From positions 1 to 22,237 of the forward strand of contig JARRRI010000014.1 of the NCBI GenBank assembly GCA_037380845.1: a DNA stretch of 22,237 nt, read 5' to 3'. The notes beneath the pieces were generated by a model. The model did no database searches and had not been told where the DNA came from. It was given only the letters and a program-made list of their open reading frames with translations. Every line of letters begins with the position of its first letter. Within the stretch, counting starts at the first letter, position 1. Origin of the DNA: Candidatus Sulfobium sp. (GTDB taxonomy: Bacteria; Nitrospirota; Thermodesulfovibrionia; Thermodesulfovibrionales; UBA6898). Shown here piece by piece: positions 1,949 through 22,087 of the stretch. A program made the translations under genes and the position numbers.

Positions 1949-2476
1949 TTGAAAAAAGACAATGGAAGGGATTTAAAGGAAATCGTTTCGAGGAGATTGG
2001 ACTGTTTCAGGAGAAGGCCGGAAACGGCTACCTACAGACCGAAGGTCTCATCGAAACATATCGAAAAGCTCTATACCGAGACCACGGTCAGGGACCATCT
2101 GGTAAAAGCGGACTACGCAGAGGCCGCCGGAGGAAGCAACAAGGCGCCCAACCCTATCGAACTTCTTCTTTCAGCATTTGCCGCCTGCATCGAAGCCGCC
2201 TTTTACGAGTTCGCCGTCCATGAGGGGTTCACCATAAATTCTCTCAGCGTCGATGTAGAGGGGACCCTCGACCTGAGGGGCCTCTTCATGATCGACGACA
2301 TCGGAGCGGGATTCAAGGACCTGAAATATACATTCCGCATCGACTCCCCGGATGATAAGAAGAAGGTGAGGGAACTGGCGGAGAAGGTTGTATCACACTG
2401 CCCGGTGGTCGACAGTCTGAAGAACCCTACGGACATTACAGGAGAAATCGTCCTGACCGGAAACAATGAAAATTAG
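1949..2476 (+). CDS. OsmC/Ohr family protein
   Basis: APNPIELLLSAFAAC and HCPVVDSL carry the two OsmC-family cysteines; also GTLDLRG. TTG start with AAAGGAGG SD; overlaps metF by 11 nt. Confidence 0.85.
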   Translation: MKKDNGRDLKEIVSRRLDCFRRRPETATYRPKVSSKHIEKLYTETTVRDHLVKADYAEAAGGSNKAPNPIELLLSAFAACIEAAFYEFAVHEGFTINSLSVDVEGTLDLRGLFMIDDIGAGFKDLKYTFRIDSPDDKKKVRELAEKVVSHCPVVDSLKNPTDITGEIVLTGNNEN

Positions 2477-3332
2477 GGATGTTCTAAAAGAAAGGGACAG
2501 CGGAGTTTCGTTCGAATTCTTCCCGCCCAAATCGGCCGAGGGCCGTTCGAAGTTCATGAAGGTAGTGCACGACATCGAACGCTTCGACCCCCTCTATGTG
2601 TCGGTGACTTACGGGGCCGGCGGCAGCACGAAGGACAGGACGGGCAATACCCTTCGCTGGATACAAGAGGAGACCAGGCTGAACGTCATGTCTCATCTGA
2701 CGTGCCTGGGGGAGAAGAAATCTTCGATAGACGACATCCTGCAGGGCCTGGCAGCCCGCGGGATAGACAATATCCTCGCCCTTCGCGGCGACCCGCCAAG
2801 GAACGTCCCAGACTTCGACGCCTCGACAGGCGAATTCGGATATGCGAAGGATCTGGTGGATTTCATCGTCAAAAAAGGGGATTTTTCGATAGCTGTCGCA
2901 GTCTATCCCGAGGGACATTTCGAGTCCCCCAGCATCGAAAAAGACATGGAATATACCAAACAGAAGATAGATGCGGGGGCCGACTTCGCAATTACGCAGA
3001 TGTTTTTCGATAACCGCTATTTCTATGAGTTCACGGACAGGGTCGAAAAAATCGGCATAAACGTTCCGGTCTTCCCCGGAATCATGCCGGTGACGGACTG
3101 CAGGAAAATTATGGAATTCGCAAATTTTTGCAGCGCTACGGTGCCAAAGAGTGTGCGTGACGCGATGGAACCGTTTCTCGACAAGCCGGCGGAGATGAGA
3201 AAACTGGGCGTCGAACTGGCTATCCGGCAATGCAGGGACCTGATTGAGAACGGGGCAAGGTATCTTCATTTCTACAGCATGAACAGGTCCGACGAGGTAA
3301 CGGCGATCATCGACGCGCTGGATGGTGTGTAA
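2466..3332 (+). CDS. metF: 5,10-methylenetetrahydrofolate reductase
   Basis: SFEFFPPK, SVTYGAGGST, SHLTC, ILALRGDPP, YPEGH, GADFAITQMFFDN, GIMP and LHFYSMN motifs. Confidence 0.95.
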   Translation: MKIRDVLKERDSGVSFEFFPPKSAEGRSKFMKVVHDIERFDPLYVSVTYGAGGSTKDRTGNTLRWIQEETRLNVMSHLTCLGEKKSSIDDILQGLAARGIDNILALRGDPPRNVPDFDASTGEFGYAKDLVDFIVKKGDFSIAVAVYPEGHFESPSIEKDMEYTKQKIDAGADFAITQMFFDNRYFYEFTDRVEKIGINVPVFPGIMPVTDCRKIMEFANFCSATVPKSVRDAMEPFLDKPAEMRKLGVELAIRQCRDLIENGARYLHFYSMNRSDEVTAIIDALDGV

Positions 3333-3496: not shown

Positions 3497-3512
3497 TGGC
3501 ATTGCAATTGCA
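3497..3512 (+). promoter_or_regulatory. sigma54 (-24/-12) promoter upstream of the methyltransferase operon
   Basis: TGGCATTGCAATTGCA has GG-N10-GC spacing and shares TGGCATTG with the 1857 motif. Confidence 0.7.
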
Positions 3513-3524
3513 TATTTATATCAC

Positions 3525-3875
3525 GTGAACAATATTCTCCTTTGCACCCACAATCCGATATCCGTCAAAAACCTTTACGGAATATTGAGGGATGAGGGAT
3601 TTGGGGTAGAGACTGCGGACCATCCCGCGCTGGCTGTCCGCATGGTGCTTGAACAGAGCTACAATGCCGTCATAATCGATTCCCAGCCCTTCGGCCTCTC
3701 CGTGGGAGACGCAGCCAAGATCATAAAGACCGTCTCCCCGGAAACAACGGTCATTTTGGTCGGCTGCAGCGACGATGATCAGGACAGCCCCGGTATAAAT
3801 GTGCCCATGGATCTATCGGAATTGAGAAATCTGGTCCATAATGTTATAAGCGTCCGCAAAATTTCGAAAACTTAA
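3525..3875 (+). CDS. Stand-alone atypical receiver (CheY-like) domain protein
   Basis: Receiver-like pattern ILLC...LRDEGFGVETADHPALAV...YNAVIID...IIKTVSPETTVILV. GTG start. Confidence 0.7.
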   Translation: MNNILLCTHNPISVKNLYGILRDEGFGVETADHPALAVRMVLEQSYNAVIIDSQPFGLSVGDAAKIIKTVSPETTVILVGCSDDDQDSPGINVPMDLSELRNLVHNVISVRKISKT

Positions 3876-3889
3876 GGAGGAGAGAAGAG

Positions 3890-4936
3890 ATGGCTATGAC
3901 ACCGAGAGAAACCATCATGAAGGCGTTCGAGCTGGGCAAGCCCGAAAGGGTTCCGGTGACGCTCTTCGGGGCCGGCATGTGGAGCATCAAGGACTATGGA
4001 ACGTCTTTCGAGGAGCTCGCAAGCGATCCGGCAAAGATGACGGATATGTGCGTGACGGAGGCAGAAAAGATAAGGAGCGACGTCGTCTATGTCGGCTCCG
4101 GTTACAACAACTTTCACGCTTCAGCCCTGGGGAAGGCTTTCGGGGTCGGCATGAAGTACCGCGAGATAGGCGCACCTGACCTCACGGCCCACATCGTCAA
4201 TACCGAGGAAGATATAGACAAGCTCAATATAGCCGACATACACAAGGACCCCGTGATACAGACCGTCGTGGATGCCACCCGCAGGGTCAAGGAAAAGATC
4301 GGGAACAAGTATCTTGTCACCATGACCTGCTGGGGACCTTTCACCCTGGCCGCGCGGTTTGTCGGCGAAGAGGTTTTTATGAAGGCGACATTCAAGAAGC
4401 CCGCCTTCGTCGAAAAGATGATCGACTTCTGCGCCGACCTGCTCATACATCTTTACGAGCCTCTTGTCAGCGACGGGACGCTCGAATGCCTCAGCATCGC
4501 CGACCCCACCGCCTCCGGAGACCTCATCAACCCCAAGCAGATGGAGCGTTTCGCGGTCCCGCCCCTGAAGAAAATGAGCGACTGGGCCAAATCGAAAAAC
4601 GTCCACACCATCCTGCACATATGCGGCAATACGAGCGACCGTCTCGACATGTTCCCGATGACCGGCTGCTCGACCATATTCTTCGATCAGAAGGTGGACA
4701 TAGCCAAGGCTAAGGAGGTGCTCGGCGGAAAGATGTGTTTTGGCGGCAACATCGCCCCGGTCCATGTCCTCCTGAACAAATCTGCGGCCGAGGTAGAGGC
4801 GGCGTGCAGGGAAGTCATAGAAATAGCTGCGAAGGACGGCGGATACATACTGGTGCCTGGCTGCGACATACCGCCGACCATACCTTATGAAAACATAAAG
4901 GTATTTCACGACGTCGCCCTCAACTGGAAATATTAA
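3890..4936 (+). CDS. MtaA/CmuA-family (UroD-fold) methylcobamide:thiol methyltransferase, copy 1
   Basis: MTPRE...PERVPV start, GPFTLAA, IADPTAS, Zn ligands LHICG and PGCDIP, FGGNIAP. AAGGAGG SD. Confidence 0.88.
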   Translation: MAMTPRETIMKAFELGKPERVPVTLFGAGMWSIKDYGTSFEELASDPAKMTDMCVTEAEKIRSDVVYVGSGYNNFHASALGKAFGVGMKYREIGAPDLTAHIVNTEEDIDKLNIADIHKDPVIQTVVDATRRVKEKIGNKYLVTMTCWGPFTLAARFVGEEVFMKATFKKPAFVEKMIDFCADLLIHLYEPLVSDGTLECLSIADPTASGDLINPKQMERFAVPPLKKMSDWAKSKNVHTILHICGNTSDRLDMFPMTGCSTIFFDQKVDIAKAKEVLGGKMCFGGNIAPVHVLLNKSAAEVEAACREVIEIAAKDGGYILVPGCDIPPTIPYENIKVFHDVALNWKY

Positions 4937-5018: not shown

Positions 5019-5525
5019 ATGGGAATTCTTGAGAGAATCATGTCGGCCATGAGGCCGGCGAACAAAATCAAGGAGGAAACGAAAATGGCAGAAACTATGA
5101 CCGTTGAACAGGTAAACGAGTACATGAAAGAGAAGTGCGGCTTCGTGCCGAGGATGTTCCAGATAATCAACACGGTCACTCCCGAACCCGGAAGGACGTT
5201 CGCCGATTTCTATGCAAGCATTTTCGGAGACGGGGCGCTTTCAAAAAAGATCAAGGAACTGATGTTCATGTCCGGCGGCGTCGGCTACTGCTCGCCAAGA
5301 TGCATCATTCACGTCATTCCGGCTATCAACGCGGGGGCGACCACCCAGGAAATATTCGAGGCCGCTGCCGTGGGCATGATACTCGCCGGTTTTGTGCCGG
5401 GCGGTCCGGGCATTCCCTATGCATTCGAGTATGCGCTGAAATGCCTCGACATAGAGGCGAAGTACAGAAAAGGGGAGAAATGGGAGTACCTGCCGCAGCC
5501 CAGGTTCGACCACGGCGTATTTTAA
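5019..5525 (+). CDS. Carboxymuconolactone decarboxylase/AhpD-family protein (alternative start at 5085)
   Basis: GALSKKIKELM...CSPRCIIHV..AINAGATTQEIFEA, the CMD/AhpD helix pattern with CxxxC. Confidence 0.8.
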   Translation: MGILERIMSAMRPANKIKEETKMAETMTVEQVNEYMKEKCGFVPRMFQIINTVTPEPGRTFADFYASIFGDGALSKKIKELMFMSGGVGYCSPRCIIHVIPAINAGATTQEIFEAAAVGMILAGFVPGGPGIPYAFEYALKCLDIEAKYRKGEKWEYLPQPRFDHGVF

Positions 5526-5707
5526 ACAAAGGCAATTGGCACGGGGCAAGGGGCGAGAGGGAAGACATAAGGTGAAGCCTTTCTTCAGTCACCTGCCCAC
5601 GGCTTCTTTCCCGCAGTAAAAAAGAGGCAGCGCCTTTTGAGGGAACGCTGCCTGAGCAGATGGTATATATCGGTATATTAACATAATTTCGACCTAAAGG
5701 AGATGTA

Positions 5708-6664
5708 ATGTTCAAGTTTCAGAAAGAACAGAAGGTGTTCAGCTTCGGCGGGATCATGATCGGGGGCCAGCCCGGAGAGAATCCGCCGTTGATGATTTCC
5801 TCGATGTTCCACAATAAAGACAAGATACTTCAGGACAGAAAGGGCAATTTCGACAGGCAGAGGGCAACAGAGATCATCCGGAAGCAGGAGGAGATGACGA
5901 AGGTGACGGGCGTCCCCGGAATGGTCGCCATGGTCGCCAACTCGCCCGACGAGGCGAAGATCTACATTGATTTCTTCCTGGAGACAACGGACATGCCTTT
6001 CGGGATAGACATGTAGGTTGCCGAGCAGAGGGCAAGGGCCACAGAGTATATCTCGAAGCTGGGGGTACAGGACAAGTTTCTGTATAACAGCATTACCCCT
6101 TGGGACAAGGATATAAAAGGGCAGGTCCAGCGACTGAAAGACCTCGGGATCCGGCATGTTGTTATACAGGCATTTGACGACCAGGATCAGAGTCCGGGGG
6201 GCAGGCTGAAATCCCTCGAATCCCTCCTGGACCAGGGCGCCGGCGATTTCGAAACGGTAATCGTCGACACATCCGTGATGAACCTTCCGTCCACTTCCTT
6301 CTCCCTTGTTGCAAACCGGCTGATAAAGGAAAAGCACGGCCTGCCCTGCGGAGGCGCCTACTCCAACGGGACGCACATGTGGAAGGAGATAAAGCCGGTC
6401 TGGGGACTGGACGGCTTCAAGGCGATGGACGCTGTAGTGCAGGGGATGTCCTCGGCACTCTGGAGTGATTACGACTTCTGCGGTCCGGCGGTCACGGCCC
6501 CCAGGGTATTCCCTGCGGTAGCCAGCGCCCACATGCTGCTTTCCACCCTCGTCTACGACGAGACAGGGGTCATCTACGATAACGAGAACCTGCCGATAAG
6601 GAAGCACTTCTCCGAGTTCATCGAGAAACTGAAGGCCGGAGGAGGAAGAAAGAAGAAGAAATAG
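5708..6664 (+). pseudogene. mtrH: MtrH/MtgA-like methylcorrinoid:pterin (THF) methyltransferase interrupted by an in-frame TAG at 6014-6016 (nonsense mutation, sequencing error or readthrough)
   Basis: ORFs 5708-6016 and 6275-6664 share a frame, and 6017-6274 is open (VAEQRARATEYISKLGVQDKFLYNSITPW...). N-terminus MFKFQKEQKVFSFGGIMIGGQPGENPP, plus YNSI, VIVDTSV and GLPCGGAYSN, are typical of MtrH. 318 codons in total. Confidence 0.85.
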
Positions 6665-6703
6665 CACTGAAGATGATAATCAAGATATAAGGAGAAAACA
6701 TTC

Positions 6704-7729
6704 ATGACGTCAAGAGAAAGAGTGATTAAACTGTTCAAGGGAGAACCCATAGACAGGGTGCCCTGTTTCAGCGGCATGGGCAACGTAACCGAGGAGGGCA
6801 TCAAGAAACTGGGATACAGGTTCGCCGATATCCACCTCGATGCCAAGATGATGGCGGATACGGCGGCAACGACTTACAAGCTTTTCGGTTTTGAAAGCGG
6901 TGTCGTGCCGGTCGATCTCTGCGTTGAAGCGGAAGCCCTCGGGTGCGTGATCAACGTGTATCCGCACGCCGAAGGCATCCTCTACCCCACCATCAAGGAA
7001 AAGCTCGTCCACAAGGAGGACGAGATGGACGTGAAAGTCCCCTCGGACCTCGCCAACAGGGGAAGGGTCCCCCTCCTCCGGGAGGCCATTAAACTTCTTA
7101 AGGCCGATATCGGCAGCGAGGTCGCTATAGGCTCTTATGTCCTGGGTCCTTTCACCCTTGCGGGGCAGGTCATGGAGCTGAACGATCTTCTCAAGCTTTC
7201 CTTCAAGAAGGCCGACAAGGTGGCGAAGATGCTGGATGTGATGGCCGACGCCATCATAGCCGTGGCCAAGGAGTACGAAAAAGCGGGCGCGGACTTCATA
7301 ACCGTCCGCGAGATGGGCGCCACCACGGACGTGTTGAGCCCGAGGGTCTTCAAAAGCCTCATTCAGCCCCCTCTCCAGAAGATAATGAAGGAGCTTACCG
7401 CATATTCCGTATTGCATATCTGCGGCAAGACTAATGATATCGTGACCTTCATGATGGAGGCCGGCCCCACCGCAATCAGTGTAGAGCAGAAAAACGATGT
7501 CCCCGAGACGCGGAAAAAGCTCGGTGCGGACGCACTCATCTTCGGTAATTACGACCCCTACAACGTCCTGGTCTCCGGCGACGAGGAACTGGTCAGGACG
7601 ACCATGAGGAAGTGCATAGATGACGGCGTGAGCGCTGTCTGGCCGGGGTGCGATATATGGCCCACTGTGCCGCCCAGGAACATGACGGCAATGATCGACG
7701 AAGTCAATAAACATGGAGGTAAGAAATAA
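6704..7729 (+). CDS. MtaA/CmuA-family (UroD-fold) methyltransferase, copy 2
   Basis: MTSRERV...DRVPC, DLCVEAEALGC, GPFTLAG, LHICG, GNYDP and PGCDIW motifs. Confidence 0.88.
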   Translation: MTSRERVIKLFKGEPIDRVPCFSGMGNVTEEGIKKLGYRFADIHLDAKMMADTAATTYKLFGFESGVVPVDLCVEAEALGCVINVYPHAEGILYPTIKEKLVHKEDEMDVKVPSDLANRGRVPLLREAIKLLKADIGSEVAIGSYVLGPFTLAGQVMELNDLLKLSFKKADKVAKMLDVMADAIIAVAKEYEKAGADFITVREMGATTDVLSPRVFKSLIQPPLQKIMKELTAYSVLHICGKTNDIVTFMMEAGPTAISVEQKNDVPETRKKLGADALIFGNYDPYNVLVSGDEELVRTTMRKCIDDGVSAVWPGCDIWPTVPPRNMTAMIDEVNKHGGKK

Positions 7730-8412
7730 TGGTAGACGAAACCAAAAAGAAAGAAATACTCGAAAAACTGAAGAACGGAGTTATCCAGTACGATGAGGAT
7801 GCCTGCCGAGAGGGCGCGCAGGAGGCCGTGGACCTGGGAATGGACGCCAATGAAGCCATATTCGAAGGCCTGGTGGCGGGTATGGAGGAAGTCGGGAGAC
7901 TCTTTGAGGCTCAGGAGTATTTCGTCCCCGAAATACTGATGTGCGCCGACGCCCTTTATGCCGGACTGGACATATTGAAACCCCATTGCCAGCAGATGGA
8001 CCTCGGCATAAAAGGTTCCGTCGTGATTGGTACGGTCGAGGGAGATGTCCACGATATTGGAAAGAACCTTGTGAAGATGATGTTCGATGTCGCCGGATTC
8101 ACGGTCTACGACCTTGGAAGGGACGTTCCACTCGACAAGTTTGTCGAGGAGCAGCTGAGGACCGATTCCGACCTCGTCTGTCTGTCCGCGATGATGACGA
8201 CGTCCATGGTCGGCATGCCCAAGGTCATAGAGAAGATCAAGGAAAAGAACCCTGAATGCCTTATCATGATCGGCGGGGCGCCTACGTCCAAGGAGCTTGC
8301 CGACAAGTGGGGCGCGGACGGGTATGCCCAGGATGCCAGCAACGCCCTTAAAGAGGCGATCAAGATGGTGGCCTTCCTCAGGAAACTCAGAGAGGAAAAG
8401 CTTAAAAAGTAG
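7729..8412 (+). CDS. Methyltransferase corrinoid (B12-binding) protein, MtaC/MttC type
   Basis: Cap domain GMEEVGRLFEAQEYFVPEI, B12 motif GDVHDIGKNLV (DxHxxG), LSAMMTT, IMIGGAP, GADGY. TAATG coupling to the upstream gene. Confidence 0.93.
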   Translation: MVDETKKKEILEKLKNGVIQYDEDACREGAQEAVDLGMDANEAIFEGLVAGMEEVGRLFEAQEYFVPEILMCADALYAGLDILKPHCQQMDLGIKGSVVIGTVEGDVHDIGKNLVKMMFDVAGFTVYDLGRDVPLDKFVEEQLRTDSDLVCLSAMMTTSMVGMPKVIEKIKEKNPECLIMIGGAPTSKELADKWGADGYAQDASNALKEAIKMVAFLRKLREEKLKK

Positions 8413-8413
8413 A

Positions 8414-9082
8414 ATGGAGTCATCGGCACTCAAGGAATATCTGAAGAGCAAAGGGGCAACCCTTGTCGGCGTGGGCGACGTGAGCCGGGCACTTACTGAT
8501 GAGATCATTCACCTCAACAGGGGAATTGCGATCGCCGTAAACAGGAGCCTGAACCGGACGACCGTGGACCTGCTTTCCCGACTTCAGGAGCTGACTGTGG
8601 AGTGGCTCAAGGAAAGGGGGGCAAGGGCTTTGGCCATACCCCCCGACTCCGACCGCATAACAGACACGTTTGTCTCGCGGTTGTATAAGCTCTTCAGTCA
8701 TAAGACGGCCGCCACCTGCTCCGGTCTCGGATGGGTCGGGAAAAACGGTCTTGTAATCAACAGGAAGTATGGTTCGAAACTGACCTGGGCAACTGTCCTT
8801 ACCGACGCTCCCCTGCAGGCTGATCTGCCGACCACGCACTCCGAGTGCGGCGATTGCGATCTCTGCGTCAAACACTGTCCCTCCGGGGCTATCAGGGGGC
8901 GTGTGTGGTCGTCCGGGGACCCTTTGAGAGAGATGGTGGCATATGAAAAATGCAGATCACTCAAAAATGACAGACTGCTCTTGAAGGGAAAGCCCAACTG
9001 CGGCCTGTGTGTTACGATATGCCCTTACTCCCGGAACGGCAGGAAGAAGGTCGAGCCCTGCGGAGTCTGCGTGGGAAGCTGA
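8414..9082 (+). CDS. QueG/epoxyqueuosine-reductase-like 4Fe-4S protein
   Basis: SHKTAATCSGLGWVGKNGLVINRKYGS, VLTDAPL, CGDCDLCVKHCP, C...CGLCVTICP. Start placed at ATG 8414, just after the upstream stop. Confidence 0.8.
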   Translation: MESSALKEYLKSKGATLVGVGDVSRALTDEIIHLNRGIAIAVNRSLNRTTVDLLSRLQELTVEWLKERGARALAIPPDSDRITDTFVSRLYKLFSHKTAATCSGLGWVGKNGLVINRKYGSKLTWATVLTDAPLQADLPTTHSECGDCDLCVKHCPSGAIRGRVWSSGDPLREMVAYEKCRSLKNDRLLLKGKPNCGLCVTICPYSRNGRKKVEPCGVCVGS

Positions 9083-9393: not shown

Positions 9394-11388
9394 ATGAGTC
9401 GCACATATAAGGTGATTTTTCAGCCCGCGGGCAGGAGAGGTGACATTGAGGAAGGGAAGACAATCCTCGAGGCCGCTCAGTCGCTTGGGGTCGACCTTGA
9501 GGCCCTTTGCGGCAACAAAAAGGTCTGCGGGAAATGCAAGGTCAGGATCGAAGAAGGCTACTTCGAGAAAGACAATATAGAATCGGGGATGGCCCATATT
9601 ACCCCGCGCGAGGCCTCCAAGGACGAGCTTAAGCACATCAAGCCCGAGGACGGCCCGGGCATCAGGCTCGCCTGTTCCTGCGAAATCCACGGCGACCTGA
9701 AGGTCTACGTGCCGGAAAGGTCGAGAGCGGGCAAGCAGGTCGTCCGGAAGGCGGCCAAAGAACTGTCCATAGCCCTGGACCCGGCCGTAAAGAAATACAC
9801 AGTCGAACTGGCGCCCCCTACCCTGCACGACATGACAACGGGCGACTACGAAAGGGTCCTCGCTTCACTGGAGGAAAATTACGGACTGAAAGGCCTTAAA
9901 TTCGACTATCTGGTGCTTAAAGACCTTCAGGATGTAATCAGGGCCGGAAACTGGATGGCAACCGTTACCGTCTGGATGGACAAGGAGATAATCAAGGTCG
10001 AGCCCGGCTCGGTCGAGGTCTGCTACGGTCTCGCAGTCGACGTAGGGACCACGACCTGCGTGGGCTATCTCTGCGACATGAGCACGGGAAAGGTAATCAA
10101 CACCGAGTCCATGATGAACCCCCAGGTCCCCTACGGCGAAGACGTGATGTCCAGGATCACGTACGCCATGACAAACCCCGAAGGGCTGGAAAAAATGCAG
10201 GAGGCCATCATAACCGGCCTGAACGAGATCATCGAGAGGGTCGTGAGTGAGGTGAAAAAAGACGGCCCCAATCCCGGATACGCTATCGATGACCTCACAA
10301 TCGTTTTCAACACCGCCATGCATCACATCTTCCTGGGACTGAACCCGACCTATATCGGCCGTTCACCCTTCATCCCGGCTGTCCAGCGTTCGCTGAACAT
10401 CAAGGCCCGCGACATGGGCCTCAGAATCAACCCCGCTGCTTACCTCCACGTCCTGCCGATCGAGGCCGGGTTTGTCGGCGCCGACAACGTGGGGGTCCTT
10501 ATCGCGCAGGAGCAGTACTTCCAGAACGAAATGGTCCTCGTTATCGATATCGGAACGAACGGAGAACTGCTCCTCGGCAATAAGGACAGGGTTTGCTCCA
10601 CCTCCTGTGCCACAGGTCCCGCATTCGAAGGCGCCCAGATCAAATTCGGCATGAGGGCCGCCCCCGGGGCCATAGAAAAGGTAAAGATCGACCCCGACAC
10701 GAAGGAGCCCCTGTACAAGGTTATCGGAAAAGCGGACTGGCATACTCACATCGAAGACGGGAAGATCAATGCCAAGGGCATATGCGGTTCGGCAATCATA
10801 GACGTCATCGCCGAGATGTTCAAGGCCGGCATCATAGACAAGACAGGCAAGTTTGTCGCCGGCCTGGACACAAACAGAATCAGAAAGGATGCGTCCGGAA
10901 AACCGGAGTATGTCCTTGCATGGGCCGACGAGACTTCCATCAACCAGGATATTACCGTCACCCAGGCCGACGTCAGGGCAATGCAGCTTGCGAAGGGGGC
11001 ACTTTACACCGGAGCAAAGCTCATGATGCAGAAAATGGGCGTTACCAGGCTCGACAGGGTGGAGCTGGCGGGGGCATTCGGAAGTCACATCGACAGGGAG
11101 GCATCCCTTACTCTCGGGCTGTTCCCGGACGTGCCGATTGACAAGGTGGTCGTAGTGGGCAACGCCGCGGGAGACGGTGCCCGCATGGCACTACTTAATA
11201 AAGGGAAAAGGATCGAGGCTGACGAAAGGTCCCGCTGGGTCGAATTCCTCGAGATTGCGACAGAGCCCGCGTTCGAAAAAGAGTTCATGCAGGCTATGCA
11301 CATCCCGCACATGAAGGACAAATTCCCCAGCCTCAAGGCAATGCTGGAAAAACAGAAGGCGCCCGTCGCGCCCAACATAAAGGCCTAG
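9394..11388 (+). CDS. ATP-dependent reductive activator of corrinoid proteins (RACo/RamA-like, 2Fe-2S plus ASKHA domains)
   Basis: N-terminal CGNKKVCGKC...RLAC 2Fe-2S site; DVGTT, YGEDVMSRI, GFVGAD, DIGTNGE, GPAFEG, GICGS, LAGAFG and GNAAGDGA motifs. Confidence 0.92.
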   Translation: MSRTYKVIFQPAGRRGDIEEGKTILEAAQSLGVDLEALCGNKKVCGKCKVRIEEGYFEKDNIESGMAHITPREASKDELKHIKPEDGPGIRLACSCEIHGDLKVYVPERSRAGKQVVRKAAKELSIALDPAVKKYTVELAPPTLHDMTTGDYERVLASLEENYGLKGLKFDYLVLKDLQDVIRAGNWMATVTVWMDKEIIKVEPGSVEVCYGLAVDVGTTTCVGYLCDMSTGKVINTESMMNPQVPYGEDVMSRITYAMTNPEGLEKMQEAIITGLNEIIERVVSEVKKDGPNPGYAIDDLTIVFNTAMHHIFLGLNPTYIGRSPFIPAVQRSLNIKARDMGLRINPAAYLHVLPIEAGFVGADNVGVLIAQEQYFQNEMVLVIDIGTNGELLLGNKDRVCSTSCATGPAFEGAQIKFGMRAAPGAIEKVKIDPDTKEPLYKVIGKADWHTHIEDGKINAKGICGSAIIDVIAEMFKAGIIDKTGKFVAGLDTNRIRKDASGKPEYVLAWADETSINQDITVTQADVRAMQLAKGALYTGAKLMMQKMGVTRLDRVELAGAFGSHIDREASLTLGLFPDVPIDKVVVVGNAAGDGARMALLNKGKRIEADERSRWVEFLEIATEPAFEKEFMQAMHIPHMKDKFPSLKAMLEKQKAPVAPNIKA

Positions 11389-11403: not shown

Positions 11404-11721
11404 ATGACCCGGGTAGTGGTAAACCCTGGCGCCTGCGGCATGGAATCGACTATTGAGATAGAAAAGAAAGATTCCAAAACCTACAGCGTGAAAGTGGGCT
11501 CGGAGTGCGAGATGGTAGTGAAACTGGGCCGCGAGATACCGGAACTCACGATGATGGACGCATTCAAAAGGGTGATGGACAATCCCGTCTATACCGGGGC
11601 GGTGAAGTGCCTAAAACACGTTGCCTGCCCCGTTCCTTCCGCCATACTGAAGGCGCTGGAAGTGGAGGCAGGACTTAACGTGCCGAAAGACGTAAGCATA
11701 AAATTCGTGAAGGAGCCGTAA
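11404..11721 (+). CDS. Small Cys-rich protein of unknown function (DUF6951-like)
   Basis: PGACG...SEC...CLKHVACPVPSAILKALEVEAGL. Co-oriented, 15 nt after the RACo stop. Confidence 0.7.
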   Translation: MTRVVVNPGACGMESTIEIEKKDSKTYSVKVGSECEMVVKLGREIPELTMMDAFKRVMDNPVYTGAVKCLKHVACPVPSAILKALEVEAGLNVPKDVSIKFVKEP

Positions 11722-11767
11722 CAGCGTGGTTAAGCCCTAACATTGCATAAAGAACCTGCATTTAGGT

Positions 11768-11837
11768 CGTCATTGAGTAATCGGGAATCCAGGTTTTCAG
11801 ACAGATTGGATGCCCGACTAAAACCTCGGGCATGACG
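11768..11837. repeat. Palindromic interspersed repeat (REP/MITE-like), copy A
   Basis: AGTAATCGGGAATCCAGGTTTTCAGACAGA.TGGATGCCCGACTAA.ACCTCGGGCATGACG is nearly identical to 21939-22015; the left arm is about 7 nt shorter. Confidence 0.85.
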
Positions 11838-11909
11838 GAAAAGGGGTTTCATCTGGAGTCAACATTGAGCGAACTCCTGCATTAAGAAAGTTCAGTAAAG
11901 TGATGGTTG

Positions 11910-12590
11910 ATGGCTATACTGTTGACAGTCCTTGTGTACTGCGTATACGCCGCTTTTTGCTGGCGGGTCATCTTACACTCTCTTATCTGGTACAGGGCGA
12001 CCGGCGGGACAAGACAAGTTGCCGCCCTTTCCCGACTGGAAGCGTTGAGGGCATGGGTAGAAACGGCGGCGGACGTTGTTTTATTCAGGAGGCTTTTTCA
12101 TGAAAACGGTCTGCTATGGATCAGTGCATGGATCTTTCACATTTCATTTCTCTTCGTGGTGGTGAGGCATCTGAGGTACTTTATGAATACTGTCGCCCGT
12201 TGCATAGTCGATCTTCAGACTCTCGGCCTTATCGCAGGATATATACTCCCGGCGTCGATAGTATCCATAGCGTTCGTCAGAATGGCGGGCCGGGAGAAAT
12301 ACGTTTCCCGATTTAATTACTTCGTCCTGGGGCTTGTCTTTCTTATCGGCGTCAGCGGTATCATGCTACACGTATTCAGGGTGGATCTCGTGGGGGTAAA
12401 GGAGTTTGTCCTGGGCATTTTTACATTTTCTTTCCGACCGGTTCCCCACAGCCCCTTGTTCATAGTCCACTTTCTCCTTGTCCTTATCCTGGTGCTCTCG
12501 CTGCCTTTTCACCTCTTTATCGCCCCCGTCATCATGCATGAGGCGAGGCGACGGGAATCAGAGCTCAAGAGGTTGCTGCATGGAAAGTGA
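11910..12590 (+). CDS. NarI/DsrM/HdrE-like b-type cytochrome membrane anchor
   Basis: About 5 hydrophobic segments; DVVLFRRLF, FHISFLFVVVRHLRYF (DsrM-like His pair) and FIVHFLLV...PFH. Confidence 0.78.
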   Translation: MAILLTVLVYCVYAAFCWRVILHSLIWYRATGGTRQVAALSRLEALRAWVETAADVVLFRRLFHENGLLWISAWIFHISFLFVVVRHLRYFMNTVARCIVDLQTLGLIAGYILPASIVSIAFVRMAGREKYVSRFNYFVLGLVFLIGVSGIMLHVFRVDLVGVKEFVLGIFTFSFRPVPHSPLFIVHFLLVLILVLSLPFHLFIAPVIMHEARRRESELKRLLHGK

Positions 12591-13839
12591 GAGAGGGCAA
12601 AAAGCGATTATTGCGCAGAATCGACGCAGCCGGGACAGCAGGGACGCTTTCGGAAAAACACTCTCATCCCTGCAGCTCATGGAACTGGACGCCTGCACGC
12701 AGTGCGGACAATGTCTCAGACATTGTCCCGTGCAGGACGTGACCGGAAACCCCTCGATTTCTCCCCCGGAAAAGATCCGCGTCTTCAGGGAGTTCATAAA
12801 AGCCACGGAGGGCCTGAAGGCCAGGCTCTTCGGCAAAGGCGTCGATCCCAGGCTTATCGCGGATTTCAGCAAAGCCATCTATGAATGCACGACCTGCGGG
12901 GCCTGCGGCCAGAACTGCTCGGTGGGTATCTTCACCCAGAGGCTCTGGCCCGCACTGAGGAGAGAGATGGTAAGACGGGGCCTCGGTCCCTTCGGTTCCC
13001 AGGCCGAGATACCGGACCATGTCCTGAAAACTGGAAACCCTTACAATAAACCGGTGGATGAGAGGTTCAGCCCGTGGTTTCCCGAGGGCATGAAAGTCGC
13101 GGAAAAAGCTGAAATAGGGTACTATGCAGGATGCACGGGCTCTTACTCGGCAATGCCCATGGTTAAGGGGGACGTGACTGTGCTTGACGCGATTGGCGAC
13201 CCTTTCACCATGCTCACCGCCGAAGAGGAGGTCTGCTGCGGATTTCCCCTCTTCATCACCGGCCAGCACGACCTGCTCCGGGATCTTACAAAGAGGCTGG
13301 TCGGGGCTTATAAGGCAAAAGGGGTAAAGACGCTTCTTTGCTCCTGTCCCTGCTGCGTTAATATTATGTCAAGGGACTGGCCCGCTTTCTACGGGAGCGA
13401 CCTGCCTTTCAGGATCCGGCATATCACGCAGTTCGTAGCAGCCGCTGTCAGGGCCGGAAAGCTAACCTTCACGGAAGGGATGAAGGAAAGGATCATCTAT
13501 CATGACCCCTGCTATCTCAGCAGAGGGGTCGGCGTTATCGAAGAGCCTAGAGAGGTCCTGAGGAGTATCCCCGGGGTTGAGGTGCTTGAATTCGAACACC
13601 ACGGACTCGAGTCGAGATGTTGCGGCGCGGGAGGCGCCGCACGAAAGACCTTCGAGGAAAATGCGTCGGCGATGGCCCGACTCACGATAGACGAGGCGGT
13701 GGACAAAAAAGCGGACCGGCTCATTCTCAGTTGCCCTGCATGTTATGCCACAGTAAACGAAGCCATGGAAGGATATGAAAAACAGGTGCGGATTACCGAC
13801 ATCATGGAACTTGTCTCGGGGGTCATAAGGAGAAGATGA
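12580..13839 (+). CDS. HdrD/GlpC-like Fe-S oxidoreductase (two 4Fe-4S motifs plus two CCG domains)
   Basis: CTQCGQCLRHCP and CTTCGACGQNC; YYAGC...CCGFP...CPCC and YHDPC...CCGAGG...CPAC. ATG at 12580 overlaps the anchor gene by 11 nt. Confidence 0.88.
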   Translation: MESERGQKAIIAQNRRSRDSRDAFGKTLSSLQLMELDACTQCGQCLRHCPVQDVTGNPSISPPEKIRVFREFIKATEGLKARLFGKGVDPRLIADFSKAIYECTTCGACGQNCSVGIFTQRLWPALRREMVRRGLGPFGSQAEIPDHVLKTGNPYNKPVDERFSPWFPEGMKVAEKAEIGYYAGCTGSYSAMPMVKGDVTVLDAIGDPFTMLTAEEEVCCGFPLFITGQHDLLRDLTKRLVGAYKAKGVKTLLCSCPCCVNIMSRDWPAFYGSDLPFRIRHITQFVAAAVRAGKLTFTEGMKERIIYHDPCYLSRGVGVIEEPREVLRSIPGVEVLEFEHHGLESRCCGAGGAARKTFEENASAMARLTIDEAVDKKADRLILSCPACYATVNEAMEGYEKQVRITDIMELVSGVIRRR

Positions 13840-13840
13840 T

Positions 13841-15097
13841 ATGAGCCATTTCACCATCCGCTGCACCAACTGCGGCGCTGAACTGAAGGAAGTTTACTGC
13901 GCCTTCTGCGAGCATTGCGTCAATGCCCTGCTGGTAACGGAATATAAAGATAAAACTTTCATACGCAAAAAAGACAGGGGCATATGGGGCTTCAGGTGGC
14001 TTCCTGTTCACAACCCACGGTTCGATCAGCCCGGTCCCGTGGTCTACAGATCGGTCGGACTTGCCGGATATCTCGGGCTCGAAAACCTTTACATAGCCTT
14101 CAACGGCTACTGGCCGGAGAAGGGAGCGATGATTCAGACCTGTACTTTCAAGGAATTCGAGGCCGCGGTAGTCCTCCAGAACGCCATGGAGAACGGAGTC
14201 GACGGCCTGACCGTCGCATCCGCCGGAAATACGGCCAGGGCCTTCGCCCACCTCTCCGTAACTTCAGGGTTCCCGGTCATAATCGTGGTGCCCACGGCTT
14301 GCCTTTCCGAGATGTGGTATCTCGAGAGTTCATCCGTAATACCGACATTTGCCGTAATAGACGGCGATTACGCCGACTCCATAGATGTAGCGAGAAGGAT
14401 TTCCTCCTCCGCCGGCTTCCCTTTCGAAGGCGGCGTCAAGAACATAGCCAAAAGGGACGGTCTGGGTACCGTACTCATGACGGCCGTTTCGGAGATGGAG
14501 AGACTTCCGAACCATTATTTCCAGGCTGTCGGCAGCGGGACAGGGGCGATAGGCGTGTGGGAGATGGCCCGACGGTTTTTGGTGGATGGAAGGTTCGGTT
14601 CTCGCCTTCCGAAACTGCATCTCGCCCAGAACCTGCCCTTCGCCCCGATGGTAAAGGCATGGGAAAAGGGCAGCAGGGACCTTTTTGAAAAAGACCTGGA
14701 GCCTGACCTTATCGCGCTGATAACAACCAGGGTTCTCTCCAACCGCTATCCGGCGTATTCTATAAAGGGAGGTGTTTACGATGCCCTTAAGGCGACTGAG
14801 GGGGAAATGTACGGCATAGAGAACGAAGATGTCTACTCGGCCATGAATATCTTTGAAGAAAAGGAGGGCATTGACGTTGTTGCGGCTGCCGCCGTCGCGG
14901 TGGCGGCATTGAGGATGGCGGCAGAGCGGGGTACCATAAGGAGAGACGATACGATACTCCTCAATATAACGGGTGGCGGTGAGCACAGACTGCAGAAGGA
15001 CAAAGGGACCCACGCCGTCGAACCGCGGGTGATATCCAAAAAAATTTCGGAGCAGGAGATAAAGGAACTGTTATGCGCTATCCGGAAGAAGAACTGA
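13841..15097 (+). CDS. Cysteate synthase (PLP-dependent, threonine-synthase-like, Methanosarcinales type)
   Basis: LYIAFNGYWPEKGA, TCTFKEFEA (PLP lysine), ASAGNTARAF, EGGVKNIAKRDGLGTV, HYFQAVGSGTG, LHLAQNLPFAPM, VLSNRYPAYSIKGGVYDAL, LLNITGGG. Adjacent to comDE. Confidence 0.85.
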   Translation: MSHFTIRCTNCGAELKEVYCAFCEHCVNALLVTEYKDKTFIRKKDRGIWGFRWLPVHNPRFDQPGPVVYRSVGLAGYLGLENLYIAFNGYWPEKGAMIQTCTFKEFEAAVVLQNAMENGVDGLTVASAGNTARAFAHLSVTSGFPVIIVVPTACLSEMWYLESSSVIPTFAVIDGDYADSIDVARRISSSAGFPFEGGVKNIAKRDGLGTVLMTAVSEMERLPNHYFQAVGSGTGAIGVWEMARRFLVDGRFGSRLPKLHLAQNLPFAPMVKAWEKGSRDLFEKDLEPDLIALITTRVLSNRYPAYSIKGGVYDALKATEGEMYGIENEDVYSAMNIFEEKEGIDVVAAAAVAVAALRMAAERGTIRRDDTILLNITGGGEHRLQKDKGTHAVEPRVISKKISEQEIKELLCAIRKKN

Positions 15098-16206
15098 TAG
15101 AAATAATGAAAAAGGAAGGGGTTGATTTTACCGCTTCCCTGCCCTGCGAAAAGATCAAGGGTCTTTTGACCATGGTGGACCGGGAGTTCTTTCATATCCC
15201 TCTGACGAGGGAGGAGGAAGGTGTCGGGATCTGCACGGGGGCCGCTCTGGCAGGAAAAAGGCCTGCGATGTTCGTACAGAGTTCCGGCATGGGCAACATG
15301 ATCAACGCCCTTCTCTCCCTCACCGGTTTTTATGAACTCCCCCTTGCCGTCTTTATCAGCAGGAGAGGGATATACAAGGAGAAGATCGAGGCCCAGATGC
15401 CCATGGGCAAAAGGCTGCCCGGAATTCTCAAGGGAGCTGCCATACGTCACACGGTCATCAATTCAACCGAAGATTTCAGACTGGTGAAGCCGAGACTTGA
15501 AGAAGTGTACGGGAAAAACGAGATACACGCTTTTCTCCTCAGCCCCGCCCTTTGGGAGGAGTCCTGCGTAGCGGAGATCCTTTTGTCGAACCAGTGTCCG
15601 ATATCATCAACCCCGATGACACGGCCGGAGGGCGAACAGGTCCCGCAACTTACCCGTTATCAGATCATAAAAACGATCTCGCCTTATCTGGAATCCAGGG
15701 TCGTAGTATGCAACCTCGGCATCCCGTCAAAAGAGCTTTACTCACTCAAGCACCAGCCTTCCAACTTCTATATGCTGGGCAGCATGGGCATGGTCACACC
15801 CATTGGTCTGGGCCTGAGCCTTTCGACGGACAGGGAGGTTATCGTAATCGACGGCGACGGGAGCATCCTCATGAACCCCGGAACACTGGCTACCGTGGCA
15901 CATTCGGCCCCGCCAAATCTGACCATCCTCGCCGTCGACAACAGCGCTTACGGTTCGACGGGCAGTCAGCCTACTCTGACCGGCTCATGTGTCGACCTTG
16001 AGCTTGTTGCCCGGGGGTTCGGAATAAGAAACACCGTCAAAGTCTCGACCGAGGAAGGGATCATCGAGGTGATGAAAAAAGCGAAAAATGAGGGCCTGCG
16101 CTTCATCCATGTCCTGGCCCTCCCCGGCAATGAGGCGGTCCCGAACATCCCCATTCACCACCTGGAGATAAAGAAGCAGTTTCAGGAGTTTCTGAAAAAA
16201 AGATGA
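15073..16206 (+). CDS. comDE: Fused sulfopyruvate decarboxylase alpha/beta (ThDP-dependent)
   Basis: ComD half: SLPCEKIK, TREEEGVGICTGA, QSSGMGNMINAL, RGIYKEKIEAQMPMG. ComE half: NLGIPSKELY, NFYMLGSMG, GDGSILMN...DN..YGSTGSQ (ThDP motif). Confidence 0.85.
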   Translation: MRYPEEELIEIMKKEGVDFTASLPCEKIKGLLTMVDREFFHIPLTREEEGVGICTGAALAGKRPAMFVQSSGMGNMINALLSLTGFYELPLAVFISRRGIYKEKIEAQMPMGKRLPGILKGAAIRHTVINSTEDFRLVKPRLEEVYGKNEIHAFLLSPALWEESCVAEILLSNQCPISSTPMTRPEGEQVPQLTRYQIIKTISPYLESRVVVCNLGIPSKELYSLKHQPSNFYMLGSMGMVTPIGLGLSLSTDREVIVIDGDGSILMNPGTLATVAHSAPPNLTILAVDNSAYGSTGSQPTLTGSCVDLELVARGFGIRNTVKVSTEEGIIEVMKKAKNEGLRFIHVLALPGNEAVPNIPIHHLEIKKQFQEFLKKR

Positions 16207-17230: not shown

Positions 17231-17246
17231 TGGTATAGGCATTGCA
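17231..17246 (+). promoter_or_regulatory. Possible sigma54 promoter for the rhodanese gene
   Basis: TGGTATAGGCATTGCA has GG-N10-GC spacing, but the predicted +1 falls very close to the SD. Confidence 0.45.
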
Positions 17247-17268
17247 CCGGTTAGAAGGAGGATCGCAC

Positions 17269-18183
17269 ATGCCGTATGTCAACCCGCAATATTTGGTCGA
17301 AACTGCATGGCTTGAGGCCCACTTGCAGGATACCAACCTGCGCATGATCGAGGTCTCAGGCATGCTTAACGCCCAGCGGAAAAACATCGCCAAAACCGTT
17401 TGCTACGACAAGCGCCACATCCCCGGCGCGGTGTTTTTGGATGTTGCAAGTTTCTATGGCCCCTTCTCGGACCCCCGGGGCACCTTTCCCCTGACGTGGC
17501 CCACGCCGACACAATTTGAAGCGATCATGGGCCAACTGGGCGTCGGCAATGATGCGCACGTGATCCTCTATAGTTCCACCGTCGGGCAACGACATTACAG
17601 TTGTCAGATGTGGTGTACACGCGCTTGGTGGATCATGCACCACTTTGGGGTGGAGTGCGCCATTCTCAACGGGGCGTTGGAGAAGTGGATGGCTGAAGGA
17701 CGTCCGGTCACCGCCGTGCCGGGGTACTATCCACCAACCCACTTTCGTGCCGACCCCCACTGGCGGCGCGGTATTGCCTATAAAGAAGATGTGCTGAAGG
17801 CCCTCCAGGGCGATAGGTCGTGTTGCGTGGTGAATGCGCTGCCTGCTGATCAATTCATGGGGGAAAGTGCGATCGTCTATGGCCCGAGGAAGGGTCACAT
17901 TACCGGCTCTGTGAGCGTCCCCATGCCGGACTTGGTGGACTGGGACACCGGGGTCTTTGCCAGTGCGGAAGCGATGCGTGCGCATTTTGACCAGGCAGAC
18001 GTGCTCTCCGCAGACCGTGTCATCATCTATTGCGGCGGTGGGGGCTGTGCCACCACTGCTGGATTTGCCCTGGCGCTTTTGGGGTACACAAATGTCGCGA
18101 TATACGACAATAGTCTGTTCGAATGGGGGGCAGATCCGTCCCTCCCGATGACCGATCCGAGCAGTGAACGGAAGGCGCCCTAG
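17269..18183 (+). CDS. Two-domain rhodanese/sulfurtransferase (SseA-like)
   Basis: LVETAWLEAHL, HIPGAVF, RAWW, ILNGALEKW, GHITGS, active loop YCGGGGCA, YDNSLFEW. AAGGAGG SD before ATG 17269. Confidence 0.9.
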   Translation: MPYVNPQYLVETAWLEAHLQDTNLRMIEVSGMLNAQRKNIAKTVCYDKRHIPGAVFLDVASFYGPFSDPRGTFPLTWPTPTQFEAIMGQLGVGNDAHVILYSSTVGQRHYSCQMWCTRAWWIMHHFGVECAILNGALEKWMAEGRPVTAVPGYYPPTHFRADPHWRRGIAYKEDVLKALQGDRSCCVVNALPADQFMGESAIVYGPRKGHITGSVSVPMPDLVDWDTGVFASAEAMRAHFDQADVLSADRVIIYCGGGGCATTAGFALALLGYTNVAIYDNSLFEWGADPSLPMTDPSSERKAP

Positions 18184-21938: not shown

Positions 21939-22015
21939 CGTCATTCCCGAGGTAGTAATCGGGAATCCAGGTTTTCAGACAGAGTGGATGCCCGACTAAG
22001 ACCTCGGGCATGACG
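21939..22015. repeat. Palindromic interspersed repeat (REP/MITE-like), copy B (complete)
   Basis: CGTCATTCCCGAGGT...ACCTCGGGCATGACG terminal inverted repeats, with an inner TCGGGAATCCA...TGGATGCCCGA pair. Confidence 0.85.
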
Positions 22016-22087
22016 CGAAAAAGCTTCCAGTTACACGTAACCAAGATAAAAGCTCATGCCGCCCTCTCCCTTATGCAACTGTAGAAT

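Follow-up and report, generated by a model that had tools for sequence, protein, structure and literature searches.

The stretch examined here, called the window, is one whole contig (C14, 22,237 bp) of the 3.18-Mb, 104-contig metagenome-assembled genome (MAG) of Candidatus Sulfobium sp. (GCA_037380845.1; Nitrospirota), which is scored 100% complete. It carries a cysteate synthase (CS) gene followed by a gene for a fused sulfopyruvate decarboxylase (ComDE), and these two close a conserved operon, probably driven by sigma-54, that also encodes corrinoid-dependent methyltransferases, a reductive activase and an HdrD/DsrK-type protein (Table 1). Coenzyme M (CoM, 2-mercaptoethanesulfonate) has been taken as a hallmark of methane and alkane archaea, apart from one unrelated bacterial pathway in alkene oxidisers. 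We asked what a pair of archaeal CoM type makes in a bacterium.

The CS-ComDE pair and its operon

In NCBIfam profile searches, the product of the first open reading frame (ORF) scored 480.7 bits against the CS model TIGR03844 (cut-off 324.9) and 89.4 bits against the best threonine synthase model (cut-off 303); the PALP domain PF00291 was matched with 107.3 bits in Pfam. F103 and K104 were invariant across 25 diverse members of the CS family, and we infer that K104 is the pyridoxal phosphate lysine. Residues 5-161 of the second product scored 184.7 bits against TIGR03845 (ComD part; cut-off 147.95) and residues 195-374 scored 234.1 bits against TIGR03846 (ComE part; cut-off 221.5). Both cut-offs were exceeded in a single chain, and this ORF is therefore a fused ComDE. 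Further, it contained TPP_enzyme N and C domains, scored 66.4 bits against PF02775 in Pfam, and has the thiamine-diphosphate motif GDG-X25-DN, and the phosphonopyruvate decarboxylase (Ppd) model TIGR03297 scored 202.4 bits, under its cut-off of 312.5.

The two ORFs share bases 15073-15097 (25 nt). A reading of the window made from sequence alone (hereafter the sequence-only reading) had described a CS overlapping a fused comDE by this length and had called the pair archaeal in type (phosphoserine/cysteate); both statements were correct, and the gene order is that of Methanosarcina and Methanoperedens loci. An overlap of 22-28 nt between the CS stop and the ComDE start recurred in 62 of 64 Nitrospirota-type loci and measured exactly 25 nt in 33 (a scripted count over two locus sets with some genomes common to both), and it is therefore not a product of chance. 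In contrast, the spacing varied from a 2624-nt gap to a 34-nt overlap in 37 archaeal and other loci.

The type-II cs-comDE-MMP16 cluster of Methanosarcina (MA3297-MA3299 of M. acetivorans), as described in the report on MMP16 (PMC11844431), has CS and fused ComDE in the same order, and the profile models were above cut-off in both systems. The pair of Methanosarcina sp. DH2 (L137) was 46-48% identical to that of the window. In Methanosarcina, MMP16 lies beside the pair, whereas the Nitrospirota genome had no match to MMP16 or MCR, and its pair ends a methyl-transfer/Hdr-like operon and is accompanied by an SsuA-like protein that was missing from two Methanosarcina genomes. The XcbA-E pathway of Xanthobacter autotrophicus likewise makes CoM in a bacterium, as may be so in Nitrospirota, and takes its sulfonate from sulfite (PMC9457059). 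However, as outlined in the same source, it starts from phosphoenolpyruvate via phosphosulfolactate synthase and obtains the thiol from cysteine, with enzymes unlike CS and ComDE. ComA/XcbB phosphosulfolactate synthase (PF02679) had no match in the genome, and the Xcb/ComA route is, in line with the sequence-only reading, not present. Both the archaeal pathway with MMP16 (PMC11844431) and the Xcb pathway (PMC9457059) are already published. Our literature search, which covered main texts, found no publication linking cysteate synthase with Nitrospirota/Nitrospirae or describing this cluster; in those papers on CoM and Thermodesulfovibrionia that we examined, CoM appeared only in mcr or methyltransferase marker lists.

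Table 1. Coordinates of the operon, its surroundings and the SsuA-like locus (window positions unless a contig or locus is named)
Feature	Position	Strand	Evidence and remarks
MetF, methylenetetrahydrofolate reductase	2466..3332	+	TIGR00676, 327.1 bits (cut-off 293.7); upstream of the cluster
Sigma-54-type -24/-12 element	3497..3512	+	TGGCAT-N5-TTGCA; about 13 nt before the first cluster gene; probable operon promoter
Small receiver-domain-like protein	3525..3875	+	First gene of the conserved block; PF00072, 24.0 bits (under cut-off 30.2)
MtaA1, MtaA/URO-D-family corrinoid methyltransferase	3890..4936	+	PF01208, 202.2 bits; Zn-type H-x-C ... C motif
AhpD/CMD-family protein	5019..5525	+	CSPRC motif; PF02627, 26.4 bits
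MtrH-type (pterin) corrinoid methyltransferase	5708..6664	+	Broken by an in-frame TAG at 6014-6016; putative identity, from the N-terminal pattern and the Mto paper
MtaA2, methylcobamide:thiol (CoM-type) methyltransferase homologue	6704..7729	+	NF004889, TIGR01463; Zn ligands
CorP, corrinoid (B12-binding) protein	7729..8412	+	PF02310, PF02607; TIGR02370, 204.8 bits (under cut-off 215.3)
Protein with two [4Fe-4S] motifs, QueG/RDH-like ferredoxin part	8414..9082	+	Listed as ORF 8297-9082; likely start ATG 8414, judged from sequence
RACo-type ATP-dependent reductive activase of corrinoid proteins	9394..11388	+	PF14574, 319.3 bits; PF17651, 180.1 bits; PF17650; PF00111; N-terminal 2Fe-2S domain
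DUF6951 small Cys protein	11404..11721	+	PF22263, 105.3 bits; last gene of the methyl-transfer module
Short intergenic repeat element	11716..11900 (also 21954-22021)		Internal inverted repeat; outside the pathway
Membrane cytochrome-b-like protein (DsrM/NarI/HdrE-like)	11907..12590	+	NF038037 (DsrM), 61 bits (far under cut-off 300)
HdrD/DsrK-type protein	12580..13839	+	Two 4Fe-4S and two CCG motifs; listed start TTG 12478, likely ATG 12580 or 12538
Cysteate synthase (CS)	13841..15097	+	418 aa, ATG; TIGR03844, PF00291; predicted reaction O-phosphoserine + sulfite -> L-cysteate
Fused sulfopyruvate decarboxylase (ComDE)	15073..16206	+	377 aa, ATG; TIGR03845 + TIGR03846; predicted reaction sulfopyruvate -> sulfoacetaldehyde + CO2
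SsuA-like (cytoplasmic TauA/SsuA-fold) protein	C23:13308-14234 (L178:7309-8238)		Outside the window
Conserved small protein, about 190 aa	C23:14291-14842 (L178:8292-8843)		C-terminus ...DWIILRAIRLYIREYERTGRL; no Pfam or NCBIfam match

MtaA2 scored 265 bits (cut-off 244) against NF004889, the 'methylcobalamin:CoM methyltransferase' subfamily, 241.2 bits (cut-off 235.4) against TIGR01463, and 172.3 bits against the MtaA of structure 4AY7, with LHICGK and PGCDI retained. MtaA1 remained under the TIGR01463 cut-off (190.5 bits) and retained LHICGN and PGC when aligned to 4AY7. The H-x-C ... C positions of 4AY7, kept in both proteins, are the zinc ligands that bind the CoM thiol. The Fe-S protein following CorP reached about 58 bits against TIGR00276, under its cut-off. 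The HdrD-like protein, whose stop lies 1 nt before the CS start, matched PF02754 (CCG; 73.3 bits over two stretches) and PF13183 in Pfam; its best NCBIfam match was TfrB (183.5 bits, under the cut-off of 385), and no HdrD- or HdrE-specific model of NCBIfam or Pfam matched the ORFs in 11907-13839.

To assess conservation, we compared the window proteins with 40 Nitrospirota loci, each reaching about 10 kb to either side of CS. The full run MtaA2-CorP-RACo-DUF6951-HdrD-like-CS-ComDE was present in 33 of them; four more were cut by a contig end and agreed with the cluster order as far as they reached, one (L069) was missing the cytochrome-b/HdrD pair, and in two CS-ComDE stood apart from the methyl-transfer genes, which sit elsewhere in both genomes. 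The HdrD-like gene immediately preceded CS in 38 of the 40 loci, with the cytochrome-b-like gene conserved before it, and the MtrH-type gene was always part of the conserved block. The same picture was obtained from 26 loci on named MAG contigs. Further, the AhpD-like protein was among the best-conserved proteins of the block (61-94% identity to orthologues), and receiver-like orthologues preceded MtaA1 in L053, L069, L086, L097, L098, L100, L101 and L159-L163. The sequence TGGCA[CT]-N5-TTGC[AT] occurred 29-32 nt before the orthologous start in five of the eight loci having enough upstream DNA; the element of the window itself has two mismatches to the typed consensus, and, with five matches in the window against 2.86 expected, is weak evidence when taken alone.

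At the edges of the block the gene content varied. A methylenetetrahydrofolate reductase gene lay near the cluster in only some relatives (L161, L056/L088). Six relatives (L044, L049, L057, L077, L094 and L104) have a gene of about 312 aa between DUF6951 and the membrane protein gene, presumably FolD-like as judged from its N-terminal pattern, and a seventh locus (L054) has a degraded copy at the same spot. These insertions and the upstream MetF gene tie the module to folate-bound one-carbon (C1) units. L070 and L092 have a methyl-accepting-chemotaxis-like gene in that position. Downstream of ComDE, the genes of the window (HAD-like, rhodanese and others) were not conserved in the 40 loci. A two-domain rhodanese/3-MST-like gene (17242-18183, plus strand), attractive at first sight as a sulfur donor, begins 1 kb after ComDE; it and the HAD-like gene were considered as pathway members and rejected on this ground.

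Dozens of Nitrospirota genomes, some of them with multi-megabase contigs, have orthologues of 58-84% identity in this context. The best 120 CS relatives were 67-84% identical, and the named ones among them stem from MAGs assigned to Nitrospirota, Thermodesulfovibrionales or Candidatus Sulfobium, apart from a single Acidobacteriota label. CS was above cut-off in 55 of 301 sampled Nitrospirota genomes across two classes: in all six genomes of the family to which the window belongs, in several families of its order and class, and in many genomes of the second class (f21). Among the 301 genomes, it was not found in families resembling Nitrospira, Leptospirillum or cultured Thermodesulfovibrio. Of the 301 genomes, 61 have DUF6951, and 51 of the 55 CS-positive genomes are among these; of the four CS-positive genomes left, three have an MtaA2 orthologue (67-71% identity) and the fourth is 65% complete. 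The genome of the window has dsrA (549.9 bits, cut-off 392.85) and dsrB; a 16S gene was not found in it. The bacterial context assumed by the sequence-only reading is thus confirmed by the named closest CS sequences, by dsrAB and by a search for McrA without a match.

A proposed sulfonate thiol and its last step

We consider it somewhat more probable than the contrary that the operon makes a CoM-type sulfonate thiol for its corrinoid methyl-transfer module. Sulfite from dissimilatory sulfite metabolism (DsrAB) and O-phosphoserine would be joined to cysteate, a housekeeping aminotransferase, unclustered in archaea as well, would convert cysteate to sulfopyruvate, and ComDE would decarboxylate this to sulfoacetaldehyde. 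Sulfoacetaldehyde would then give a sulfonate thiol, most likely CoM, by a step that would not involve MMP16/ComF and for which the candidates are the SsuA-like protein and an uncatalysed reaction with sulfide that the cell itself produces. The thiol would be the substrate of the two Zn MtaA-type methyltransferases, which would share one corrinoid protein with the MtrH-type enzyme. Methyl groups would pass between tetrahydrofolate, corrinoid and thiol, in whichever direction the flux may run, with RACo re-activating the corrinoid, and the HdrE/HdrD-like pair may use the quinone pool to hold the thiol, or a partner disulfide, in the reduced state. Xsc had no match above cut-off in the genome, so that no competing sink for sulfoacetaldehyde is apparent.

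Several observations weigh against this proposal. The best match in the genome to MMP16/ComF (TIGR03287) was 27.2 bits against a cut-off of 363.95 and involved the ferredoxin part only, and COG1900 (PF01837) had no match; in the Methanosarcina locus used as positive control, MMP16 adjoins the pair and scored 611.3 bits. The sequence-only reading had found no final thiolation step in the window, and these searches extend its observation to the whole genome. McrA (PF02249), the only known CoM-dependent enzyme searched for, likewise had no match, with two methanogen control genomes positive. MtaA2 is below equivalog level for MtaA/MtbA (NF040654, 241.9 bits against 400; NF041608, 175.4 bits against 600), and because MtaA was described as methylating many non-native thiols, the zinc motif is no proof of CoM (PMC13618148). 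Further, the MtrH-type gene carries a stop in this assembly, MAGs are incomplete, and the genomes reached through loci are of unstated completeness.

The Mto O-demethylase of Methermicoccus shengliensis and bacterial O-demethylases combine an MtaA/MtvB-family protein, an MtrH-like protein, a corrinoid protein and a 2Fe-2S activase, as in the upstream module, and were described as transferring the methyl group to a pterin without CoM (PMC8630106). Set against Mto by description, MtaA2 of the window passes the cut-off of the 'methylcobalamin:CoM methyltransferase' subfamily. The Mto cluster is not known to have CS, ComDE, HdrDE-like, AhpD-like or DUF6951 genes.

Another set of unfavourable observations concerns the separability of the module and the pair. 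In family f19, DUF6951 was found in 4 of 12 genomes, and CS, ComDE and the SsuA-like protein were missing. In three f19 loci the module is complete, with the receiver-like gene at one end and DUF6951 at the other, and radical-SAM and SAM-methyltransferase genes (SAM, S-adenosylmethionine) come next; ComA (PF02679) had no match in the four f19 genomes that have DUF6951. The module can therefore work without a home-made sulfonate. Since DUF6951 is present in nearly all CS-positive genomes but the reverse fails, the sulfonate genes appear to be accessory to the methyl-transfer module and not vice versa. An HdrD-like orthologue (69-70% identity) was also present in a CS-negative f19 genome and lay apart from CS in genome G175; where apart, it was beside NarI-like, ArsR/BigR-like, DsrE2-like and SQR/CoA-disulfide-reductase-like genes of sulfur-stress type. 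We therefore regard it as not specific to the pathway and do not assign it a dedicated role as reductase of a CoM heterodisulfide. That the HdrDE-like pair carries out the missing thiolation, or belongs exclusively with CS-ComDE, is made less likely by the same f19 orthologue and G175 and by L069 and L101, which have CS-ComDE without HdrDE-like genes.

The genes that follow DUF6951 in one f19 genome (G030; L159:6849-9971) encode a variant radical SAM protein with 224.1 bits against NF045502, a SAM methyltransferase with matches to DVU_1556 and CpaM-like families, both under cut-off, and a B12-binding radical SAM protein.

In G175, CS-ComDE lies on another contig than the methyl-transfer module. 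On its contig C7 (L162:10260-12842), a complete SsuABC/TauABC-type sulfonate ABC transporter sits inside the module, between RACo and DUF6951, and its SsuA scored 204.6 bits (cut-off 163.5). This insertion is a second, independent link of the module to an aliphatic sulfonate.

An SsuA-like protein encoded outside the window also tracks the pair. It was found in 62 of the 301 Nitrospirota genomes, comprising 54 of the 55 CS-positive genomes, 4 with a broken CS and 4 others; put otherwise, it occurred in 8 of 246 CS-negative genomes and in none of the 12 in f19. In 15 distinct Nitrospirota loci its gene is convergent to ComDE at a distance of 2-1620 bp, usually with the conserved small protein gene between, and in four Hydrothermarchaeota-type loci it follows ComDE directly and overlaps the ComDE stop. 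The C-terminus of the small protein gave the impression of a ribbon-helix-helix tail.

The SsuA-like protein matched NMT1_2 with 55.9 bits and TIGR01728 with 75.8 bits (under the cut-off of 163.5). Its predicted fold (pLDDT 93.9) is that of the periplasmic binders TauA/SsuA (PDB 6ssy, 3ksx, 3e4r and 2x26; TM 0.77-0.84), to which sequence matches were weak, with the PBP-fold enzyme Thi5 next. Unlike these binders, it has no signal peptide and usually no permease or ATPase neighbours, and two Cys (Cys75 and Cys258) and seven His were invariant over 20 sequences with identities down to 45%. From its distribution and predicted structure, we propose it as a candidate for the missing last step; its role may instead be to bind or sense a ligand and not to catalyse, which is a caveat to the argument from Methanoperedenaceae below.

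We compared 16 CS-holding genomes for MMP16 and the SsuA-like protein. Eleven have the SsuA-like protein without MMP16 (the genome studied here, four Hydrothermarchaeota-type, five Methanoperedenaceae and one Promethearchaeota), two have MMP16 only (one Methanosarcina and one Methanomicrobiales), two have both and none has neither; one genome of the ANME-2 group was ambiguous. The five Methanoperedenaceae genomes, whose completeness was not established, had no TIGR03287 match at E<=1e-10, which leaves no COG1900 paralogue either, and the SsuA-like protein was present in 5/5. Methanoperedenaceae depend on MCR and hence need CoM. That they need CoM yet show no match to MMP16 is the best indirect argument that the CS-ComDE and SsuA-like set yields real CoM. 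A 2015 paper that lists 'ComDEF' as encoded by Methanoperedens (PMC4683180) may conflict with this result and is a further point on the unfavourable side. As for the uncatalysed route, an MMP16 deletion mutant of M. acetivorans was described as growing without CoM at high sulfide (PMC11844431); a cell that produces sulfide could plausibly convert sulfoacetaldehyde in such a direct reaction.

The pathway could instead end at a sulfonate that is not a thiol, namely isethionate, taurine or sulfoacetate, used as a solute, lipid head group or sulfite sink, with the linkage to the methyltransferases reflecting shared regulation and not chemistry. Neither MMP16 nor COG1900 was found in a genome scored 100% complete, and the co-travelling protein, having the fold of taurine/alkanesulfonate binders, may simply bind or sense the product; both facts fit such an ending. 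So does the occurrence of CS in Spirochaetota, WOR-3 and a cyanobacterium, where no ComDE adjoins it, and of named CS family members in Streptomyces, Gammaproteobacteria and an amoeba, since a family spread over such varied other organisms implies other uses for cysteate. However, no reductase, aminotransferase or dehydrogenase gene was conserved beside the pair, in two classes of the phylum the pair shares its operon with two Zn-thiol-type methyltransferases, and the CoM-requiring Methanoperedenaceae have the same CS-ComDE and SsuA-like set with MMP16 unmatched. We therefore think a non-thiol product unlikely. Isethionate, taurine and sulfoacetate had been raised as possible products in the sequence-only reading; because the pair forms the distal end of a methyl-transfer/Hdr-like operon, each is less likely than a thiol, and each keeps some probability.

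It is also conceivable, and in our judgement quite improbable, that a sulfonate thiol is made but serves thiol redox or sulfur-stress handling (through the AhpD-like, DUF6951 and HdrDE-like proteins) or corrinoid-dependent metalloid (arsenic) methylation. Methanogen MtaA with CoM and methylcobalamin methylates metalloids. DUF6951 genes of Methanosarcina (L172, L173) and of a Spirochaetota MAG (L174) lie among genes for an ArsP permease, Acr3-type (SBF) and ArsR proteins, a universal stress protein and CMD/AhpD-like proteins, and this presence of DUF6951 and AhpD-like genes in arsenic-type islands speaks against the pathway that we favour. Among NCBIfam models the AhpD-like protein of the window matched only arsenic- and selenium-linked AhpD families, all far under cut-off, and the sulfur-stress-type neighbours of the stand-alone HdrD-like orthologue point the same way. 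Against this, the constant MtrH-type gene, FolD in six loci and MetF beside the cluster indicate folate C1 metabolism, and no ars genes were found in the window in NCBIfam and Pfam scans.

Returning to a CoM-type thiol made for the methyl-transfer module, one may extend the proposal further: anaerobic sulfur-cycling Nitrospirota, and those Hydrothermarchaeota with the same gene set, may make genuine CoM without MMP16 and run an MCR-independent methyl-CoM/folate metabolism, and the TauA/SsuA-fold Cys/His protein may be a new CoM synthase, also that of Methanoperedens-type methane oxidisers. This extension is tentative, and we regard it as doubtful. More generally, if a second, archaeal-type CoM route is indeed widespread in uncultured sulfate-/sulfite-reducing Nitrospirota and wired to B12 methyl-transfer enzymes, CoM, methyl-CoM and "CoM methyltransferase" genes in sediments would not be markers of methanogens alone. 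Bacteria of marshes and aquifers would then have a methyl-sulfur or methyl-folate metabolism that has yet to be described, and the debated final reaction of CoM synthesis would gain a candidate open to testing, in a family present where MMP16 is missing, including nitrate-/metal-dependent methane oxidisers.

Origin of the pair

Trees were computed with FastTree or by quick LG+G4 searches with SH-aLRT as the only measure of support. The CS family comprised 202 clusters at 50% identity (E<=1e-30), with bacterial and even eukaryotic members. In a CS tree of 52 rows rooted on the threonine synthase (ThrC) of the genome itself, the Nitrospirota-type rows formed one clade (SH-aLRT 93), with the base of the tree not resolved. 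They fell with archaeal CS, apart from ThrC, and outside a clade (support 97) of Methanosarcinales, Methanomicrobiales, ANME, Methanotrichaceae and a second bacterial group without adjacent ComDE; the nearest non-Nitrospirota rows in the CS trees were Hydrothermarchaeota-type. In the ComDE tree, Nitrospirota-type rows and Hydrothermarchaeota-type archaea formed a group (support 96), joined next by two Promethearchaeota rows (99). Six true Ppd of other Nitrospirota genomes (27-30% identity) were also used as root; a long branch (SH-aLRT 100) split them from all ComDE, and the Nitrospirota/Hydrothermarchaeota group was nested inside archaeal ComDE with a support of 81-86 at the nesting nodes.

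Because Nitrospirota ComDE is nested in archaeal ComDE together with Hydrothermarchaeota, the trees favour an ancient transfer into bacteria from an archaeal lineage that is not methanogenic, after which the genes spread among Nitrospirota. The sequence-only reading had offered two explanations. Transfer from methanogens, taken as a Methanosarcinales donor, did not hold, as CS lies outside the clade of Methanosarcinales and ComDE groups with Hydrothermarchaeota-type archaea that have no McrA match. An unrecognised bacterial lineage of the pathway fits better, since the pair occurs in 55/301 Nitrospirota genomes across two classes.

Two alternatives are weaker still. That the genes are a divergent threonine synthase and a Ppd of a phosphonate pathway is scarcely credible: ThrC and Ppd are indeed the nearest paralogues, and TIGR03297 does give its sub-threshold match, but the profile scores separate CS from ThrC and place ComD and ComE over and Ppd under cut-off, the own ThrC of the genome lies on another contig (24% identity to CS), the best PEP mutase match in the genome was 112.6 bits against a cut-off of 319.55, and Ppd splits from ComDE as described. 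It is as hard to believe, and in practice refuted, that a methanogen donated the pair recently or that the contig is archaeal and was misbinned into the MAG, as the archaeal order of CS and ComDE might suggest, given bacterial-type neighbours on both sides on a 22-kb contig of even GC (0.50-0.57), orthologues in the same context in dozens of Nitrospirota genomes, and a Nitrospirota clade of its own outside Methanosarcinales.

The nearest relatives outside the phylum are MAGs of Candidatus Hydrothermarchaeota/Pyrohabitans (L105, L107, L111 and L119), with 50-51% identity in CS, 48-51% in ComDE and 44-47% in the SsuA-like protein. Hydrothermarchaeota-type genomes also have homologues of MtaA2 (52% identity to the window, compared with 33% for Methanosarcina), CorP (68%), RACo (58%), the CMD protein (59%), MtaA1 (45%) and the MtrH-type protein (41%), and McrA and MMP16 were each found in 0/4 of these genomes. 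The whole set is therefore common to two lineages that do not make methane. The Hydrothermarchaeota differ in being archaea, in the SsuA-like gene being co-directional with ComDE and overlapping its stop, and in having the methyl-transfer genes on another contig and in another order.

In a Promethearchaeota MAG (L130:9297-10019), a gene for a PAPS/APS reductase (CysH, 199 bits, cut-off 154) directly precedes CS-ComDE; judged from its sequence, this enzyme would supply the pair with sulfite from within the locus, in an Asgard archaeon without an MMP16 match.

Features particular to this assembly

The in-frame TAG of the MtrH-type gene is codon 103. All 33 orthologues covering this codon read TGG (Trp), and position 6015 was G, not A, in contigs of 3/3 metagenome DNA runs covering the site; the TAG is therefore a strain-level mutation or consensus error, with no sign that the system is dead in the population. 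On the same grounds, we ruled out a reading of the codon as pyrrolysine or selenocysteine. A minus-strand ORF of 329 aa (5678-6667) was rejected as a real gene and is a shadow of the MtrH-type gene; the frame is open in relatives too, with 35-49% identity in tblastn.

The intergenic repeat between the DUF6951 and cytochrome-b-like genes had 35 further BLAST matches in the genome. Read depth peaked at this element, with many loose ends, and a junction from 11716 to 11894, skipping 11717-11893, was present in three runs, showing that some strains are without this repeat copy.

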